DNA of 6,492 nt from a virus (taxonomy: Duplodnaviria; Heunggongvirae; Uroviricota; Caudoviricetes), in IMG/VR virus record IMGVR_UViG_2645727640_000047, positions 1 to 6,492 of that record; one strand, 5' to 3'. The notes beneath the pieces are model-generated. The model did not search any database. It was given only the letters and a program-made list of their open reading frames with translations, and had not been told where the DNA came from. The stretch's first letter is position 1, and the number at the start of each line of letters is the position of its first letter. Made by a program: the position numbers and the translations under genes. This document shows, piece by piece, positions 1-6,492 of this stretch.

Positions 1-35
1 CTGTTATAAATATCTTTTATATCAGTATATTATAG

Positions 36-204
36 GGTGAACAGTTATTTATGAACTGTTCACCAAACTATTCACTGTTCACCTTTTTGATTGTTTATTG
101 AGCTTCAAGGGTGAACAGTGGTGAACAGTTGGTGAATAGTTTTTGTGAAACTGTTCACCCCTTAACATTATGAATTAAAAGATAAAATATCAAAAGGTGA
201 ACAG
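36..204. repeat. Iteron cluster of a P4 alpha-type replication origin (ori/crr-like): octamer TGTTCACC in both orientations
   Basis: Seen in sequence: TGTTCACC at 57-64, 76-83 and 152-159; its reverse complement GGTGAACA at 36-43, 110-117, 120-127 and 196-203; one degenerate copy GGTGAATA at 131-138. An AT-rich stretch at 161-195 could be the unwinding element. Established knowledge: TGTTCACC is the type I iteron bound by the phage P4 alpha primase-helicase at ori and crr. Confidence 0.7.
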
Positions 205-301
205 GTGAAGGGTTAAAACGCAAAAATTTTAATTTACTGCTGTGAGATAAAGCCTATGACAGCGAAGCACATAAAAAAAATCACAATCGCACGCCCTTGA
301 T

Positions 302-502
302 TTGACGGAACACTGGTTAAGGGTGTCGATAAAAATCATCGACCGCAACGCCGGGGAAGGATATGCGAAAGCACATCCCGAACTGATTAGCGCATTCATG
401 ACAACGGCAGCTGCAAACTTTGCCACGCTGACAGAACGGGAGATTGCCGAAGCGGAACAGGTGACAACCATCAACGTTAAAACCGGAGAGCAGACAGCAT
501 GA
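302..502 (+). CDS. Hypothetical small protein; start uncertain (TTG 302, GTG 323 or ATG 398, all in frame)
   Basis: ORF in the track; its TGA stop (500-502) overlaps the ATG (499-501) of the next gene in an ATGA arrangement, suggesting translational coupling. No family recognised. The antisense ORF 229-474 is judged less likely because the plus-strand genes form a coupled operon. Confidence 0.35.
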   Translation: MTEHWLRVSIKIIDRNAGEGYAKAHPELISAFMTTAAANFATLTEREIAEAEQVTTINVKTGEQTA

Positions 503-921
503 CAGCACAGATAGCGGCTTACGGGCGGCTGGTGGCTGACCCGCAGTTAAAGACCACCAGCAAGGGTACACAAATGACGATGGCGAGTATGGCGGTCCCA
601 CTTCCGTGCAGCCAGGCAGATGACGGAACGGCGACGATGTGGTTATCCGTCCTGGCGTTTGGCAGACAGGCCGAAGCACTGGCAAAGCACCGCAAGGGTG
701 AACTCCTGAGCGTGGCGGGTAACATGCAGGTGAGCCAGTGGACCGGACAGAACGGGGAGACGCGGCAGGGCTGGCAGGTTATCGCAGACAGCGTAATCAG
801 TGCGAGAACGGCGCGACCGGGCGGCAAAAAAGGCCAACAGGGGCAGGCTACTGATGCACTGAGCAGAGCAAAACAACAGGCGGGAAATGATGATCCGTAC
901 GGGGATAACATACCGTTTTAA
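499..921 (+). CDS. ssb: Single-stranded DNA-binding protein (SSB family), 140 aa
   Basis: The translation has an OB-fold-like core (VLAFGRQAEALAKHRKGELLSVAGNMQVSQWTGQNGETR, compare E. coli SSB [39 protein letters not shown]), a Gly/Gln-rich linker and a C-terminal tip DDPYGDNIPF (compare E. coli SSB DFDDDIPF). A GGAGAG Shine-Dalgarno lies about 9 nt upstream, and a terminator follows. Confidence 0.75.
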   Translation: MTAQIAAYGRLVADPQLKTTSKGTQMTMASMAVPLPCSQADDGTATMWLSVLAFGRQAEALAKHRKGELLSVAGNMQVSQWTGQNGETRQGWQVIADSVISARTARPGGKKGQQGQATDALSRAKQQAGNDDPYGDNIPF

Positions 922-936
922 GCAACGAGTAACAGA

Positions 937-959
937 AGCCGGAGCAATCCGGCTTTTTT
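937..959 (+). terminator. Rho-independent terminator after the ssb-like gene
   Basis: Stem AGCCGGA (937-943), loop GCAA, stem TCCGGCT (948-954), followed by a T-run through 959; it sits 16 nt after the stop codon. Confidence 0.6.
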
Positions 960-977
960 ATGGGTCCTCCCGGTGTA

Positions 978-1186
978 GTGACCTGCCACGGGGCGGGAGC
1001 GGCGCGGAAAAAGGCTAGTTTTTGCATTTTCATTCGTCATCATCATCTTTCTATAATGTTGAATTTTAAGTGTTTTTATTTTTGGTATGTTAATTTTGCT
1101 TGTTTTGTGTTCAACATACAGCGCGTTTTTTGACCTTTTTTAAAAGATATTTGCAAGATGCATTTTTAAAACATTCTGGAGCGGGT
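978..1186 (+). promoter_or_regulatory. Candidate lambda-like cos region (cosN-like 988-1003, AT-rich cosB-like 1020-1180) upstream of the Nu1-like gene; contains a perfect TATAAT at 1052-1057
   Basis: ACGGGGCGG at 988-996 is identical to the 9-mer that, as recalled, spans the lambda cosN nick (right end ...TTACG joined to left end GGGCGGCGACCT). It lies about 196 nt upstream of the Nu1-like ATG at 1187; lambda Nu1 starts at nt 191. TCGTCAT and GTTTTTATTT motifs recalled from lambda cosB also occur (1034-1040, 1072-1081). The right half of the putative cosN differs from lambda (GAGCGG versus CGACCT). Confidence 0.4.
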
Positions 1187-1672
1187 ATGGATCGGGAACT
1201 GAAAAATCTGATGCTGAACATTAACCAGCTGGCGGCGATAGCGGGAATATGTCGCCAGACTGCGGCGGCAAGGCTGAAAAATATCCAGCCAGCCGGAGGA
1301 CATGACAAGCTGAAACTCTATCGGGTGACTGACATTCTGACTTGTTTTCTTGATCTTCCCGTTCCGGCATCACTGGAAGAAATGGAGCCACACGACCGTA
1401 AGGCCTGGTATCAGTCCGAACGTGAGCGCCTCAAGTTCGAACAGGAAACGGCGCAACTCATACCCGCCGATGATGTGCGAAAAGAGATGGCTATATGGGG
1501 AGAAATCGTAAGCGAGGAACTGGAAAAACTCCCCAGTATTCTGGCACGTGATGTTGGGCTTAAACCGATGGCAGTAAACAGAGTGCAGTCAATTATTGAC
1601 GATTTGTGTAATCAGATTATCAGCCGGATGGTAAAAAATGACGTAGTGAATGAGGTCGCAAAACAGGCATGA
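1187..1672 (+). CDS. Nu1-like terminase small subunit (N-terminal HTH), 161 aa; start set at the ATG with a GGAG Shine-Dalgarno rather than the track's TTG at 1100
   Basis: The N-terminal LNINQLAAIAGICRQTAAARLKNIQPA matches the lambda gpNu1 HTH pattern VNKKQLADIFGASIRTIQNWQEQGMPV (Q-L-A-x-I-x-G-...-T-...-P). The size is similar (161 versus 181 aa). A GGAG lies 8 nt upstream of ATG 1187. The gene sits downstream of the cos-like sequence as in lambdoid phages. Confidence 0.55.
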   Translation: MDRELKNLMLNINQLAAIAGICRQTAAARLKNIQPAGGHDKLKLYRVTDILTCFLDLPVPASLEEMEPHDRKAWYQSERERLKFEQETAQLIPADDVRKEMAIWGEIVSEELEKLPSILARDVGLKPMAVNRVQSIIDDLCNQIISRMVKNDVVNEVAKQA

Positions 1673-1956
1673 TAATGACCGAATCTGAAATACTGCGATT
1701 AATCCGCTGTGCTGGTGGAATTAGCCAGTTGGCTGACGAACAGGCCGCGCAGCCGGATACAGTCACCGCTGAAAATTACGCGCGTGTGGTGGCTGAGGTG
1801 ATGCGCCGTGACGGTATTGAGCTTAACGGCGTGGATATGCGCAACATACGAACCAGAGTCCTTGAGTTGCTGGCATACCGTCGCCGTTCTCAACAACGGA
1901 GGGAGAGCGCGAAAAATACTTATCAGTGGAAGAAGCCGGAATGGTTGCGGCGGTAA
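1669..1956 (+). CDS. Hypothetical 95-aa protein translationally coupled to the Nu1-like gene; weak resemblance to the N-terminal segment of lambda gpA (terminase large subunit)
   Basis: Its ATG (1669-1671) overlaps the upstream TGA (1670-1672). The N-terminus MIMTESEILRLIRCAGG...QPDTVTAENYA loosely parallels lambda gpA MNISNSQVNRLRHFVRAGL...PQTAVEWADANYY. It occupies the position that terL holds in lambdoid phages but is only 95 aa. Confidence 0.45.
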   Translation: MIMTESEILRLIRCAGGISQLADEQAAQPDTVTAENYARVVAEVMRRDGIELNGVDMRNIRTRVLELLAYRRRSQQRRESAKNTYQWKKPEWLRR

Positions 1957-2001
1957 TTTGTTGATATTCCTGATAGCGCAAAAGTGCGTTGGCTGGTGGG
2001 T

Positions 2002-2021
2002 GAGTTGCAGATCTGCAACTC
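2002..2021. repeat. Perfect 20-bp palindrome GAGTTGCAGATCTGCAACTC with a central GATC
   Basis: The reverse complement is identical to the forward sequence. It lies 46 bp after the stop of the last island ORF. Either a dimeric-protein operator/recognition site or a hairpin; the central GATC is a Dam site. Confidence 0.5.
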
Positions 2022-2040
2022 GACCATGAAATTACGGAAA

Positions 2041-2223
2041 CTACCCGTAGTTTGGGTAGTAAGAGTAACACCCAGATTTTGGGGCTTACTCGCGATACCC
2101 AAATAAAGGGTATCTGTGGAAGAAATATCGTTTCTCATATGTGAGTACCGAGGGCGGAATTCCGCCTTCGGTTACTTATTGTGCTCATGCACAGGGAGGG
2201 GCGGGTCAAATCCCTGTGACCTG
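2041..2223. other. Non-coding cluster of inverted repeats / hairpins at the right border of the inserted element
   Basis: CTACCC...GGGTAG (2041-2059); GATACCC-7nt-GGGTATC (2094-2114); perfect 14-bp palindrome GGCGGAATTCCGCC (2153-2166) extended by wobble to ACCGAG/TTCGGT (2147-2172); CACAGGGA-13nt-TCCCTGTG (2190-2218). Contains GGGGCGGG (2198-2205) and GTGACCTG (2216-2223), both also present at 978-997. No credible ORF. Confidence 0.45.
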
Positions 2224-2362
2224 ACGTCTTCCGGACTGCCAGCCCCATCGATTTTTTATACCCGCGAAAAATGAAAAACGCTTCACGCTGGTGGGCCTGA
2301 TGCCGATAACTGGTTTCATGACTGATAGCCGGAAAATGATAACGATTAAAGCGTGTTGATCT

Positions 2363-2419
2363 TTGTTCGTGGTTGTTCGATATTGTTCGTGGAACGGTGT
2401 AGTTAATGGTGTAGTTAAT
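2363..2419. repeat. Direct repeats: TTGTTCGTGG (2363-2372, 2383-2392; partial TTGTTCGA 2373-2380) and tandem GGTGTAGTTAAT (2396-2407, 2408-2419)
   Basis: Seen directly in sequence. The arrangement resembles arm-type recombinase or regulator binding sites next to an integration junction; the function is not established. Confidence 0.4.
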
Positions 2420-2592
2420 TTTACTGTTTTTGACGAGCTTATTGTTTGCAACTCAATGAAAAATAAAGGCTAATAAGCCAAATGCTATAAATGATAGTTA
2501 TCTATCATGTGGAGTAGATTGGTCAGGCAAATAAGCTCTTGTCAGCGGCAGGGCGTTCTGCCGATAACCGTAACCGAAGATGATAACTGACA

Positions 2593-2913
2593 ATGGGTAA
2601 AACGAACGACTGGCTGGACTTTGATCAACTGGCGGAAGAAAAAGTTCGCGACGCGCTAAAACCGCCATCTATGTATAAAGTGATATTAGTCAATGATGAT
2701 TACACTCCGATGGAGTTTGTTATTGACGTGTTACAAAAATTCTTTTCTTATGATGTAGAACGTGCAACGCAATTGATGCTCGCTGTTCACTACCAGGGGA
2801 AGGCCATTTGCGGAGTCTTTACCGCCGAGGTTGCAGAAACCAAAGTGGCGATGGTGAACAAGTACGCGAGGGAGAATGAGCATCCATTGCTGTGTACGCT
2901 AGAAAAAGCCTGA
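2593..2913 (+). CDS. clpS: ATP-dependent Clp protease adaptor ClpS, 106 aa
   Basis: The translation [51 protein letters not shown]... matches E. coli ClpS as recalled; there is a 30-bp gap to clpA, as in K-12. Confidence 0.96.
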
Positions 2914-2943
2914 ATGCAGGCATAAAAATTGGGGGAGGTGCCT

Positions 2944-5220
2944 ATGCTCAATCAAGAACTGGAACTCAGTTTAAATATGGCTTTCGCCAGAGCGCGCGAG
3001 CACCGTCATGAGTTTATGACCGTCGAGCACTTGTTACTGGCGCTGCTCAGTAACCCATCTGCCCGGGAGGCGCTGGAAGCGTGTTCTGTGGATTTGGTTG
3101 CGCTCCGTCAGGAACTGGAAGCCTTTATTGAACAAACCACACCCGTTCTGCCTGCCAGTGAAGAGGAGCGCGACACACAGCCGACGCTGAGTTTTCAGCG
3201 TGTACTGCAACGTGCGGTCTTCCATGTCCAATCCTCCGGTCGCAATGAGGTAACCGGTGCAAACGTTCTGGTCGCTATCTTTAGCGAACAGGAGTCGCAG
3301 GCGGCATATCTGTTGCGTAAACATGAAGTCAGCCGTCTCGATGTGGTGAACTTTATCTCTCATGGCACGCGTAAAGACGAGCCGACACAGTCTTCTGATC
3401 CTGGCAGCCAGCCAAACAGCGAAGAACAAGCTGGTGGGGAGGAACGTATGGAGAATTTCACGACGAACCTGAATCAGCTTGCGCGCGTGGGCGGAATCGA
3501 CCCACTGATTGGTCGTGAGAAGGAGCTGGAGCGTGCTATTCAGGTTCTCTGCCGTCGCCGTAAAAACAACCCGCTGCTGGTGGGGGAATCTGGTGTCGGT
3601 AAAACCGCGATTGCGGAAGGTCTTGCCTGGCGAATTGTTCAGGGCGATGTGCCGGAAGTGATGGCTGACTGTACGATTTACTCTCTCGATATCGGTTCTC
3701 TGTTAGCGGGCACTAAATATCGCGGCGACTTTGAAAAACGTTTTAAAGCGTTGCTCAAGCAGCTGGAGCAGGACACTAACAGCATCCTGTTTATTGATGA
3801 GATCCACACCATTATCGGTGCGGGGGCAGCGTCTGGTGGCCAGGTCGATGCGGCTAACCTGATCAAACCGTTGCTCTCCAGCGGTAAAATTCGCGTAATT
3901 GGTTCGACAACCTATCAGGAGTTCAGCAACATTTTCGAGAAAGACCGTGCTCTGGCGCGTCGCTTCCAGAAAATTGATATTACTGAACCGTCGATCGAAG
4001 AAACTGTTCAAATCATCAATGGCCTGAAACCGAAGTATGAAGCGCACCACGACGTGCGTTATACCGCAAAAGCGGTGCGTGCAGCGGTAGAGCTGGCGGT
4101 GAAATACATTAACGATCGTCATCTGCCGGATAAAGCCATTGACGTTATCGACGAAGCGGGCGCTCGCGCACGCCTGATGCCGGTAAGCAAACGCAAGAAA
4201 ACCGTTAATGTGGCGGATATTGAGTCCGTGGTGGCCCGTATTGCGCGCATTCCAGAGAAGAGTGTTTCTCAGAGTGACCGCGATACCCTGAAAAACCTCG
4301 GCGATCGCCTGAAAATGCTGGTCTTCGGTCAGGATAAAGCCATTGAGGCGCTGACTGAAGCCATTAAGATGGCGCGTGCAGGTTTAGGTCACGAACATAA
4401 ACCGGTTGGTTCGTTCCTGTTTGCCGGCCCTACCGGGGTCGGGAAAACAGAGGTGACGGTACAGCTTTCGAAAGCGTTGGGCATTGAGCTGCTGCGCTTT
4501 GATATGTCCGAGTATATGGAACGCCATACCGTCAGCCGTCTGATTGGTGCGCCTCCGGGATACGTTGGTTTTGATCAGGGAGGTTTGCTGACTGATGCGG
4601 TCATCAAGCATCCACATGCGGTGCTGTTGCTGGACGAAATCGAGAAAGCGCATCCGGACGTGTTCAATATTCTGTTGCAGGTGATGGACAACGGTACGCT
4701 GACCGATAACAACGGACGCAAAGCGGACTTCCGTAACGTGGTGCTGGTGATGACCACCAACGCCGGGGTACGTGAAACTGAGCGTAAATCCATTGGTCTT
4801 ATCCACCAGGATAACAGCACCGATGCGATGGAGGAGATCAAGAAGATCTTTACACCGGAATTCCGTAACCGTCTCGACAACATTATCTGGTTTGATCATC
4901 TGTCAACCGACGTGATCCATCAGGTGGTGGATAAATTCATCGTCGAGTTGCAGGTTCAGCTGGATCAGAAAGGTGTTTCTCTGGAAGTGAGCCAGGAAGC
5001 GCGTAACTGGCTGGCCGAGAAAGGTTACGACCGGGCAATGGGCGCACGTCCGATGGCGCGTGTCATCCAGGACAACCTGAAAAAACCGCTCGCCAACGAA
5101 CTGCTGTTTGGTTCGCTGGTGGACGGCGGTCAGGTCACCGTCGCGCTGGATAAAGAGAAAAATGAGCTGACTTACGGATTCCAGAGTGCACAAAAGCACA
5201 AGGCGGAAGCAGCGCATTAA
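2944..5220 (+). CDS. clpA: ATP-dependent Clp protease ATP-binding subunit ClpA, 758 aa
   Basis: The translation begins [35 protein letters not shown] and has two AAA+ modules with Walker A motifs ([16 protein letters not shown]). A strong Shine-Dalgarno GGGGGAGG (2931-2938) lies 5 nt before ATG 2944; the track's TTG start at 2929 is not used. Confidence 0.96.
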
Positions 5221-5244
5221 TCTGATTGTTAGGTAGGTTGGTCA

Positions 5245-5280
5245 AGTCCGTAATCTCGAAAGAGGTTACGGACTTTTTGT
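5245..5280 (+). terminator. Rho-independent terminator of clpA (about 13-bp stem, GAAA tetraloop, T-run)
   Basis: AGTCCGTAATCTC (5245-5257), loop GAAA (5258-5261), GAGGTTACGGACT (5262-5274) with one G-U wobble, then TTTTTGTTT. Confidence 0.8.
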
Positions 5281-5432
5281 TTATGGGGTGGAGGAGGTTC
5301 AGACCCTTTTTTTAATGATGATGGTAAGTTGTTGATAATTAGTGCTGCGGGAAGGTAAGGATAAAAAAGGGTGCTGCAGGAGAATGGGATGGTTTTGCTT
5401 TATTAACAACGGGCTAAACGTGTAGTATTTGA

Positions 5433-5520
5433 GTTCACTGCCATACAGGCAGCTTAGAAATCGACGGGGTGCGGTAAAACCTTTGCGAACGCGTTCACTG
5501 CCGTACAGACAGATAAAATG
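5433..5520 (+). CRISPR. Orphan type I-F CRISPR mini-array: 2 repeats, 1 spacer, no cas genes in the window
   Basis: Repeat 1 GTTCACTGCCATACAGGCAGCTTAGAAA (5433-5460); 32-bp spacer TCGACGGGGTGCGGTAAAACCTTTGCGAACGC (5461-5492); degenerate terminal repeat GTTCACTGCCGTACAGACAGATAAAATG (5493-5520). The repeat matches the 28-bp Ypest/I-F consensus GTTCACTGCCGTACAGGCAGCTTAGAAA with one mismatch. An AT-rich leader-like region lies at 5290-5432. The clpA-infA position is the known E. coli CRISPR3/4 (I-F) locus. Confidence 0.85.
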
Positions 5521-5522
5521 CG

Positions 5523-5550
5523 AAAAAAAAGCTCGCACTTTCGTACGAGC
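5523..5550 (-). terminator. Rho-independent terminator of serW (8-bp stem, GAAA tetraloop, U8)
   Basis: On the minus strand the RNA reads GCUCGUAC-GAAA-GUGCGAGC followed by UUUUUUUU; it lies 14 nt downstream of the tRNA 3' end. Confidence 0.8.
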
Positions 5551-5563
5551 TCTTCTTTAAATA

Positions 5564-5651
5564 TGGCGGTGAGGGGGGGATTCGAACCCCCGATACGTTG
5601 CCGTATACACACTTTCCAGGCGTGCTCCTTCAGCCACTCGGACACCTCACC
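5564..5651 (-). tRNA. serW: tRNA-Ser (anticodon GGA), 88 nt including the encoded CCA
   Basis: The reverse complement reads GGTGAGGTGTCCGAGTGGCTGAAGGAGCACGCCTGGAAAGTGTGTATACGGCAACGTATCGGGGGTTCGAATCCCCCCCTCACCGCCA, with the anticodon loop CUGGAAA, a long variable arm and the T-loop GGTTCGAATCC. Confidence 0.95.
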
Positions 5652-5693
5652 AAATTGTTTTGTCGCCTGACCTCATGGGTGGCAACGGGGCGC

Positions 5694-5722
5694 TACTATA
5701 GGGAGTTGGAGTAAAACGGTCA
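5694..5722 (-). promoter_or_regulatory. Candidate sigma-70 promoter of serW (-35 TTGACC, 17-bp spacer, -10 TATAGT, GC-rich discriminator)
   Basis: On the minus strand: TTGACC (plus 5717-5722), 17 bp, TATAGT (plus 5694-5699), followed by AGCGCCCC, as is typical of stringently controlled tRNA promoters; about 40 nt upstream of the mature tRNA 5' end. Confidence 0.5.
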
Positions 5723-5840
5723 AGAAGAATTTTAATGATAATTATTGTTTGCTCATACTGTAAACAAGTTGTGCAGTATATCTACATCGAGACAAGTTAC
5801 GGACTTATACTTCCAAAGTACTTCATACATATCACAAAAT

Positions 5841-5862
5841 AAAAAGGCCGGTTAAACCGACC
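5841..5862 (-). terminator. Rho-independent terminator of infA
   Basis: On the minus strand the hairpin GGUCGG-UUUAA-CCGGCC (plus 5846-5862) is followed by a U-run (plus 5841-5845); it lies about 40 nt downstream of the infA stop codon. Confidence 0.6.
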
Positions 5863-5904
5863 TTTTACTCGTTCTTTCTCTTCGCCCATCAGGCGGTAAA
5901 ACAA

Positions 5905-6126
<222 letters not shown>

Positions 6127-6492
6127 ATCCTCTGGGGTATCACTACCGTAATTTGAACCGGCAAGATAATGCCGAAGTTCTGTAAATAAGTAAAGATTTG
6201 CGCGCTAAATCGCAACAAACAGGTTCGGCACATTACTCCGAAAACACACGGCTAAGCCGCACCAAAAGCGCAACGTATAAGGGAGCGGTGAGATAAACGA
6301 TGGGCGTTACCTGACGCGAAAAATTCCTTATCGGCAGCGGGGTAATGAGCGTAACCAACTCTGCGACCGCAATTATAACACTCTGGGGAGAAATGTGCCG
6401 AAAACATTCATTCTTGTGGTGAAAACAAGGGAAGGTGCGAATAAGCGGGGAAATACTTCTCGGCTGACTCAGTCATTTCATTTCTTCATGTT

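Follow-up and report, generated by a model that had tools for sequence, protein, structure and literature searches.

What occupies the DNA directly to the left of clpS in a viral record that otherwise reads like an Escherichia coli chromosome? The stretch that we analyzed (the window: all 6,492 nucleotides, positions 1 to 6,492, of the IMG/VR record IMGVR_UViG_2645727640_000047, classed as Caudoviricetes) is K-12 sequence from position 2491 rightwards, in keeping with a first-pass annotation of the same letters, which had recognized the K-12 backbone from clpS on. To the left of the backbone, that annotation placed the right end of a satellite of the phage-inducible chromosomal island (PICI) type, standing where cspD should be. 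K-12 MG1655 has the order macB, cspD (minus strand), yljB, clpS, with the start of cspD 323 bp before the clpS ATG. By K-12 spacing, cspD would fall at 2046 to 2270 of the window, so that the predicted 2047 to 2271 was right within one base, and there is no cspD open reading frame (ORF) at that place. We conclude with high confidence that window positions 1 to 2508 are the right-hand third, from the replication origin (ori) to attR, of an integrated PICI of about 8.06 kb that belongs to the EcCICFT073/EcCIIHE3034 lineage. The new point is that this one satellite carries sequences matching the cos sites of two unrelated packaging systems, which suggests that it could be packaged by two types of helper phage.

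The borders of the element were fixed by comparison with a collection of 5,426 complete E. coli genomes, to which all genome counts below refer. The closest match to the window is NZ_AP027844 (locus L001), which is 99.5% identical over 6.4 kb and extends beyond the left edge of the window. Its gene order is macB, cspD, yljB, tyrosine integrase, AlpA-type regulator, YlcI, Icd-like, DUF4222, primase, the window genes and clpS. Both cspD and yljB are intact in L001, directly left of the integrase and 8 kb upstream of the first base of the window. The idea that the element occupies the position of cspD is thus true only as coordinate arithmetic: the gene has been displaced by 8 kb and kept. Homology to K-12 ends at 2491, where K-12 reads CCAACGATAG followed by ATGATAGTTATCTATCAT and GTGGAGTAG, and the window reads AATGCTATAA followed by the same ATGATAGTTATCTATCAT and GTGGAGTAG. 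The 18-bp sequence ATGATAGTTATCTATCAT (2491 to 2508) is the attR core. It is attB in K-12, and it recurs at the left junction of L001, which reads CCAACGATAG, ATGATAGTTATtTATCAT, CTAGTGTTCG, so that an 18-bp repeat, ATGATAGTTAT[C/T]TATCAT, with one mismatch flanks an insert of 8,057 bp. The mismatch is at core position 12 (T in attL, C in attR and attB), which confines the crossover to positions 2491 to 2501, ATGATAGTTAT. This is exactly the core published for the cspD-clpS site, which is listed for EcCIIHE3034 (10.5 kb) and EcCI18098 (10.8 kb) (PMC6092414, Table S1).

Positions 2491 to 2508 are the right border, and the element is inserted between yljB/cspD and clpS. The border had been estimated at about 2450, with the junction repeat expected near 2420 to 2480; the actual core lies about 40 to 60 bp further right, and the second att repeat that had been looked for upstream is present in L001, which has the core at both junctions. 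The core overlaps the stop codon of yljB (24 codons), and yljB is preserved at attL (L001 14361 to 14450). The possibility that the left part of the window is conserved backbone, which the first-pass annotation had kept in view, does not agree with the distribution of the insertion: of the 5,426 genomes, 5,058 (93%) have the site empty, and it is interrupted in about 367 (approximately 7%).

The gene set of the whole element is that of a PICI. In L001, the integrase has PF00589 and Arm-DNA-bind_3 domains, the regulator matches PF05930 (4e-16) and the primase has D5_N, Pox_D5 and DUF5906 domains (Pfam). These three genes, together with the iteron ori of the window, are co-oriented. The integrase, AlpA and P4/D5-family primase genes expected upstream are therefore present, as read in the 99.5%-identical L001 and not in the source genome. 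The att cores of L001 enclose 8,057 bp in which a homologue of the small terminase subunit (TerS) is the only packaging protein, and neither the annotation of L001 nor family scans of the full element gave any capsid, tail, lysis or structural gene. Furthermore, all four occupants of the site that we inspected among the approximately 367 occupied genomes (L001, L018, L020 and L021) are PICI-like, and O157:H7 strain Z1767 has another PICI there; the cspD-clpS att site is a PICI hot spot. The claim of a PICI-type right end beside clpS is borne out by the gene set of L001, the att repeat and the published site.

The nearest described relatives share much of this layout. EcCIIHE3034 and EcCI18098 have the same att site and 11-bp core, and both encode a small terminase homologue. 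EcCIIHE3034 also has the order int-alpA-icd-DUF4222-primase-ori-ssb and the small gene that we call ORF93, and its P arm and core are almost identical to the window from about 2310 rightwards. Unlike the window element, it is 10.5 kb long and encodes a major capsid protein and decoration proteins; the TerS of EcCIIHE3034 is of the lambda Nu1 type (35% identical to Nu1) and barely similar to the DUF1441 protein of the window (E = 0.011); and it has neither the hairpin tract nor the second cos site described below. EcCICFT073 has the same gene order as L001, with 78% identity in the integrase and 49% in the primase, but differs in its att site (ycfD-phoQ), in having rppA in the slot of the TerS homologue, and in its capsid, decoration and perC genes. 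A P4/D5-family primase and an Icd-like gene would also fit a P4-like satellite, and islands of this kind are often annotated as cryptic prophages. We nevertheless regard all such readings (P4-like satellite, defective prophage, conserved E. coli backbone) as very improbable. With P4-like satellites it shares only the primase family and the icd-like gene; psu, delta and sid are all missing from the full element in L001, and its cos sites are lambda-type and SfV-type, not P2-type. These 8 kb lack capsid, tail and lysis genes, the site is empty in 93% of genomes, and the integrase, gene order, ORF93 and arm motif match those of characterized PICIs. Nor is the element a capsid-forming PICI (cf-PICI): the own capsid, protease, portal, connectors, HNH endonuclease and large terminase (TerL) of that class are absent from the window and from L001, and the cf-PICI that we compared (L008) shares only ORF93, part of the hairpin tract and the arm motif. 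The element is a new member of a described satellite family at a described att site.

The first of the two cos sites lies in the stretch without genes (922 to 1186) between ssb and the DUF1441 gene. A terminator-type hairpin on the plus strand (938 to 959; GCCGGA-GCAA-TCCGGC, then T6) was read directly from the sequence and was not listed by the terminator scan. It marks a module boundary, as homology to longer relatives restarts at 954. Directly after it comes a lambda-type cos site (cos1, 962 to 1010), with a cosQ-like GGGTCCT at 962 to 968 and a cosN-like ACG-GGGCGGGAGCGG-CGCGG at 988 to 1007, in which the presumed 12-nt cohesive end is 991 to 1002. Lambda itself has cosQ GGGTCCT and cosN ACG-GGGCGGCGACCT-CGCGG at similar spacing. 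The cosN of cos1 differs from that of lambda at five of the 12 positions and agrees with the mEp460 group at 11 of 12 (phi458, GGGCGGGAGCGT); cos1 occurs once in the window and is conserved with phages phi458 and mEp460_4F5. A lambda-like cosQ and cosN at 962 to 1007, combined with a divergent cosB and placed directly upstream of a specificity gene, is the arrangement of the cos PICIs that use Rpp proteins. EcCICFT073 has a near-identical terminator hairpin, followed by cosQ and a lambda-type cosN, and its cos1, directly upstream of rppA, is functional (PMC6739421).

The gene that follows cos1 in the window (1187 to 1672, plus strand) encodes a Nu1-like small terminase homologue of 161 amino acids. 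The protein matches DUF1441 (2e-35; 122 bits against a cut-off of 35.1) and PHROG 141, "terminase small subunit" (5e-57), and is 67% identical to the TerS of mEp460_4F5, whereas its alignment to lambda Nu1 is weak (28%, MAFFT). At the DNA level, four lambdoid phages (mEp460, phi458, Ayreon and PhiR47_1) have a cos-terS region with 72 to 76% identity to 962 to 1617. Between cosN and terS, a leader at 1011 to 1186 is about 70% like that of mEp460-group phages, least so in its distal half; from the lambda layout, this cosB equivalent may be where TerS binds. In the phages of the mEp460 group, terS is followed by a gene for a 700–amino acid protein annotated as the large terminase; the label gpA-type for this TerL comes from prophage annotations, and the protein matches no NCBIfam family. 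Family membership and a gene adjoining cos identify a Nu1-like small terminase, for which binding to DNA and to TerL is predicted. Most likely, the satellite provides in this protein the subunit through which the large terminase of an mEp460-type helper would recognize cos.

A different role for the DUF1441 protein has to be weighed here. It may act as the Rpp proteins do, by assembling with phage TerS, blocking recognition of the phage cos and redirecting the complex to the satellite cos. The gene sits in the exact slot of rppA in EcCICFT073, between cos1 and ORF93. Its product is 67% identical to phage TerS through the oligomerization region, but its last 15 or so residues differ from the phage protein, and none of the four satellite copies examined has the acidic tail ADDEEELQQEE. 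This tail of phage TerS may, to judge from lambda Nu1, be the end that contacts TerL. On the other side, the protein has no sequence similarity to RppA (E = 2.5) and no significant match among PDB chains (best E = 0.046, to an unrelated HNH nuclease), even though the structure of RppC has been solved (PMC6739421). ORF93 likewise neither resembles RppA nor has a significant PDB match, and the element thus lacks the Rpp homologue, binding lambda-type TerS, that marks the Rpp-type cos PICIs. The DUF1441 protein is, moreover, a full-length TerS homologue with its N-terminal winged-helix region conserved, and replacement of TerS in the manner of the Staphylococcus aureus pathogenicity islands (SaPIs) is an equally good precedent. 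We regard the Rpp-like role as possible but rather doubtful.

The second cos site has a different ancestry. An 83-bp block (cos2, 2194 to 2276) is 94 to 96% identical to the genome ends of SfV, SfI, SfII, SfIV, ST64B and 118970_sal3 (E from 1e-28 to 9e-30), 82% identical to the annotated "cos-site" of phiP27 and 97.6% identical to a block present in many E. coli prophages. In the one prophage inspected, the genes on either side of this block encode an HNH endonuclease and a P27-family TerS; in the satellite, cos2 is beside neither an HNH gene nor terS. The cohesive end of SfI has been determined experimentally as 5'-TGCCCGCCCC (PMC3636060). The equivalent in cos2 is TGCCAGCCCC (2237 to 2246), so that the flanks and nine of the 10 end positions match. 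The remaining position is a C-to-A change that all the satellite copies examined carry and that no phage copy has. EcCICFT073 also has two cos sites, but both are lambda-type with cosN GGGCGGCGACCT, whereas the window combines cosN GGGCGGGAGCGG with a second cos from an HNH-dependent system. Homology to the two groups of candidate helpers, mEp460/phi458/Ayreon and SfV/SfI/ST64B/phiP27, stops sharply at the module edges.

Between the two packaging regions lie a satellite-specific gene and a noncoding tract that seems to be so as well. ORF93 (1669 to 1956, plus strand; 95 amino acids in the window, 93 to 95 overall) is a homologue of CFT073 c1505. EcCICFT073, EcCIIHE3034, a cf-PICI and a helper-embedded satellite have it at the corresponding place, and no satellite type that we inspected has a gene behind it. 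In EcCICFT073, c1505 (93 amino acids) is likewise followed by about 550 bp of noncoding DNA with a doubled GGTGTAGTTAAT motif. ORF93 has 875 homologues, all unnamed, is essentially absent from 50,697 phage records, and gave nothing in Pfam or NCBIfam and nothing meaningful in a PDB sequence search. Its AlphaFold2 model (from an alignment of 28 sequences) has three helices, with a pLDDT of 62 and a pTM of 0.31 that are too poor for a fold search. We considered ORF93 as a decoy of the TerL N-terminus and rejected this, as there is no similarity. A second candidate identity was RgdR, a listed PICI accessory protein of 99 amino acids encoded by c1493 and reported as an activator of LEE type III secretion (PMC3378721). 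This too was rejected, because the length and position of RgdR fit the DUF4222 protein instead. That protein, encoded upstream of the primase and outside the window (L001 17855 to 18154), also has 99 amino acids and appears to correspond to RgdR, by its length and its position relative to CFT073 c1493; its residues 20 to 22 are PGA instead of the RGD motif.

No gene is annotated in the 636 bp from the end of ORF93 to clpS (1957 to 2592). The first-pass annotation described a hairpin-rich, noncoding border tract. It is noncoding and rich in hairpins, but it proves to be a mosaic of a hairpin module, a phage cos and integrase arm sites rather than a mere border. The hairpin module (module X, 1957 to 2193) contains a perfect 20-bp palindrome (1991 to 2010), three ACCC-N7-GGG[T/G] hairpins and a terminator-like stem (2147 to 2172). 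The folding z-scores of 1957 to 2195 are −8.3 for the plus strand and −9.0 for the minus strand, and none of 200 shuffled sequences was as stable. As the tract is equally stable on both strands, it more probably contains DNA palindromes than encodes one RNA. An Rfam scan of 1 to 2600 at E ≤ 1 gave two chance matches to miRNA families in the iterons and none in 1957 to 2490. PICIs at tRNA-Ile share module X at 92 to 97% identity, as does a satellite that lies within the gpA gene of a prophage; a cf-PICI has part of it, and the copies in E. coli are nearly invariant. The module has no match in the 50,697 phage records and is absent from EcCICFT073 and EcCIIHE3034; a single Shigella locus from contig scans also lacks it. 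The minimal reading is that it forms the 3'-end or terminator region of the operon. The satellite in the gpA gene belongs to the "helper-embedded satellites" of Tommasini et al.; it sits inside the large-terminase gene of a lambdoid prophage (locus L009; NZ_CP168984, strain UTME-3, 1 to 9365) and carries ORF93 and module X without terS or cos2.

To the right of cos2, three TTGTTCG repeats at an exact spacing of 10 bp (2363 to 2389, plus strand) are followed by the motif GGTGTAGTTAAT in two copies (2396 to 2419, plus strand). Similar TGTTCG repeats stand beside attL in direct orientation, and the 29-bp segment with the doubled motif (2394 to 2422) is also repeated directly near attL (L001 14567 to 14595). 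Because both motif types recur near attL and the integrase has an Arm-DNA-bind_3 domain, they are best read as two classes of arm-type site to which the integrase would bind, not as the crossover core. Other elements have kept the doubled motif as well: EcCICFT073, EcCIIHE3034, a cf-PICI and one from Shigella.

At the left edge of the window, the right part of the replication origin (1 to 230) is an AT-rich field in which a 9-mer iteron, GGTGAACAG/CTGTTCACC, recurs in either orientation. There are eight copies of GGTGAACAG on both strands within 36 to 204; the window as a whole has 10 against 1.5 expected, and no more than nine occurred in any of 200 shuffled sequences, which agrees with the iteron ori proposed earlier. 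Further copies lie just left of the window (L001 19980 to 20005), and the ori of EcCICFT073 has the same layout downstream of pri with a different 9-mer, CTGTCTACC, also in both orientations. A small ORF of PHROG 1231, of unknown function (256 to 501, plus strand), has lost its frame in the window through one additional A (A8 at 274 to 281, A7 in NZ_AP027844), which could be a sequencing error, decay or homopolymer slippage; it is intact, with 81 amino acids, in L001, L016, L017 and L020. The next gene (499 to 921, plus strand) is ssb, which encodes a single-strand DNA-binding protein of 140 amino acids (PF00436, 7e-16; PHROG 44). Both the ssb and the packaging gene named in the first-pass annotation are thus real.

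From the borders, modules and homologies described above, we infer how the element would be induced, excised and packaged. By analogy with EcCICFT073 (PMC6092414, PMC6739421), a helper phage would induce expression of AlpA, the integrase would bind the TTGTTCG and GGTGTAGTTAAT arm sites and excise the element, replication by the primase from the GGTGAACAG iterons, aided by the SSB that the element encodes, would yield concatemers, and a helper terminase would cut these at cos and package them. Each full-size head would probably receive several tandem copies; five copies come to about 40 kb, inside the 37 to 45 kb of both groups of candidate helpers. Two routes into the phage head may then be open. 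In the first, which uses cos1, the Nu1-like TerS of the satellite would bring the gpA-type large terminase of an mEp460/phi458-like lambdoid helper to satellite DNA. In the second, cos2 would be cut as it is by the unmodified terminase and HNH endonuclease of phages of the SfV/SfI/ST64B/phiP27 type. We tentatively advance the possibility that this 8-kb satellite parasitizes two unrelated helper packaging machines, and that module X could be an undescribed cis element in packaging or regulation.

Each route has a precedent in the SaPIs of Staphylococcus. In pac-type SaPIs, a TerS encoded by the satellite redirects the TerL of the helper, as the window TerS might, and SaPIbov5 carries a copied helper cos that is cut by an HNH-dependent phage terminase, analogous to cos2. 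SaPIbov5 combines both types of packaging. Note that there is no sequence relationship between SaPIs and the window element and that their host is Gram-positive; both window routes are of the cos type and are predictions from sequence. PMC6092414 and the cf-PICI preprint both cite SaPIbov5 and the pac-type SaPIs, and SaPIs are cited as exploiting a helper cos together with HNH.

Several observations weigh against a working satellite with two packaging routes. The genes int, alpA and pri, as well as attL, lie outside the window and come from L001 rather than from the source genome. Without an acidic C-terminal tail, the satellite TerS may not bind TerL directly and could instead mix with phage TerS. 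The C-to-A change falls within the 10-nt cohesive end, so that cos2 could be inactive, and the element encodes no HNH, P27-type TerS or TerL to go with it. The model also leaves module X unexplained. Finally, the form itself is rare. The whole of 1 to 2600 is present in only 2 of the 5,426 genomes, and most relatives at the att site (for example, Ecol_224) have approximately 2.4 kb more between ssb and cos1 (at window 922 to 954; L020 8433 to 11000), encoding a fusion of a ClpP-like protease with a major capsid protein next to an ORF of 207 bp. Without the capsid gene, the form in the window, H1 and H2 is short (8.06 kb against about 10.5 kb), and this absence could, like the frameshifted small ORF of the window copy, mean decay.

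These points raise the alternative of a decaying, immobile PICI remnant, in which cos2 would be a recombination scar from an SfV-like prophage and not a working packaging site. To the missing capsid module, the frameshift, the altered cohesive end and the lack of a cognate HNH, TerS or TerL may be added that a query with 1957 to 2490 finds a median of one place per genome, which means that most carriers do not have an SfV-type prophage with the same cos. We nevertheless judge this remnant unlikely. The int, alpA, primase, ssb, terS and ORF93 genes are all intact in L001, as are both att cores and the arm repeats. The cos2 block is kept at 94 to 98% identity with sharp borders. Furthermore, the block of terS, ORF93, module X and cos2 is also found in PICIs at tRNA-Ile, and the same C-to-A variant occurs at the two att sites despite divergence elsewhere in the block, which looks like maintenance. 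As for the capsid module, a preprint reports that the capsid genes of EcCICFT073 are dispensable for transfer. Parts of the element are also more widespread than the short form: the right end (at least 80% of 1957 to 2490) is present in 44 genomes, terS with ORF93 in 192, and ORF93-like sequence in about 1,000.

The remainder of the window is backbone. The first gene, clpS (2593 to 2913, plus strand), lies outside the element, with its start codon 85 bp to the right of the att core, and insertion of the element or read-through from it may affect clpS-clpA expression. It is followed by clpA (2944 to 5220), tRNA-Ser(GGA) (5564 to 5651, minus strand) and infA (5905 to 6123, minus strand). Between clpA and tRNA-Ser, two copies of GTTCACTGCC[A/G]TACAG[G/A]CAG stand 60 nt apart (5433 to 5452 and 5493 to 5512); their spacing and sequence fit an orphan type I-F CRISPR remnant of two repeats, such as is known from the clpA-infA locus.

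For annotation, our findings mean that the locus should be labeled a PICI, with the published cspD-clpS site as its att site and with an intact cspD, and not a replacement of cspD or a cryptic prophage, and that its noncoding right end can be read as functional modules. With the site occupied in approximately 7% of E. coli genomes, clpS-clpA expression could be altered in that many. What adds interest is that the second cos is of the HNH type, that a TerS homologue fills the slot of Rpp, and that a hairpin module (X) specific to satellites is present. The 2018 study (PMC6092414) names helpers only for EcCICFT073 and PmCI172, and the cos homologies name mEp460/phi458-like and SfV/ST64B-like phages as candidate helpers for TerS-encoding E. 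coli PICIs at the cspD-clpS site. If the satellite does use both packaging systems, the C-to-A change would leave its ends unable to anneal perfectly with phage ends, and carrying the cos sites of two phage lineages would widen its helper range, as has been proposed for staphylococcal SaPIbov5.

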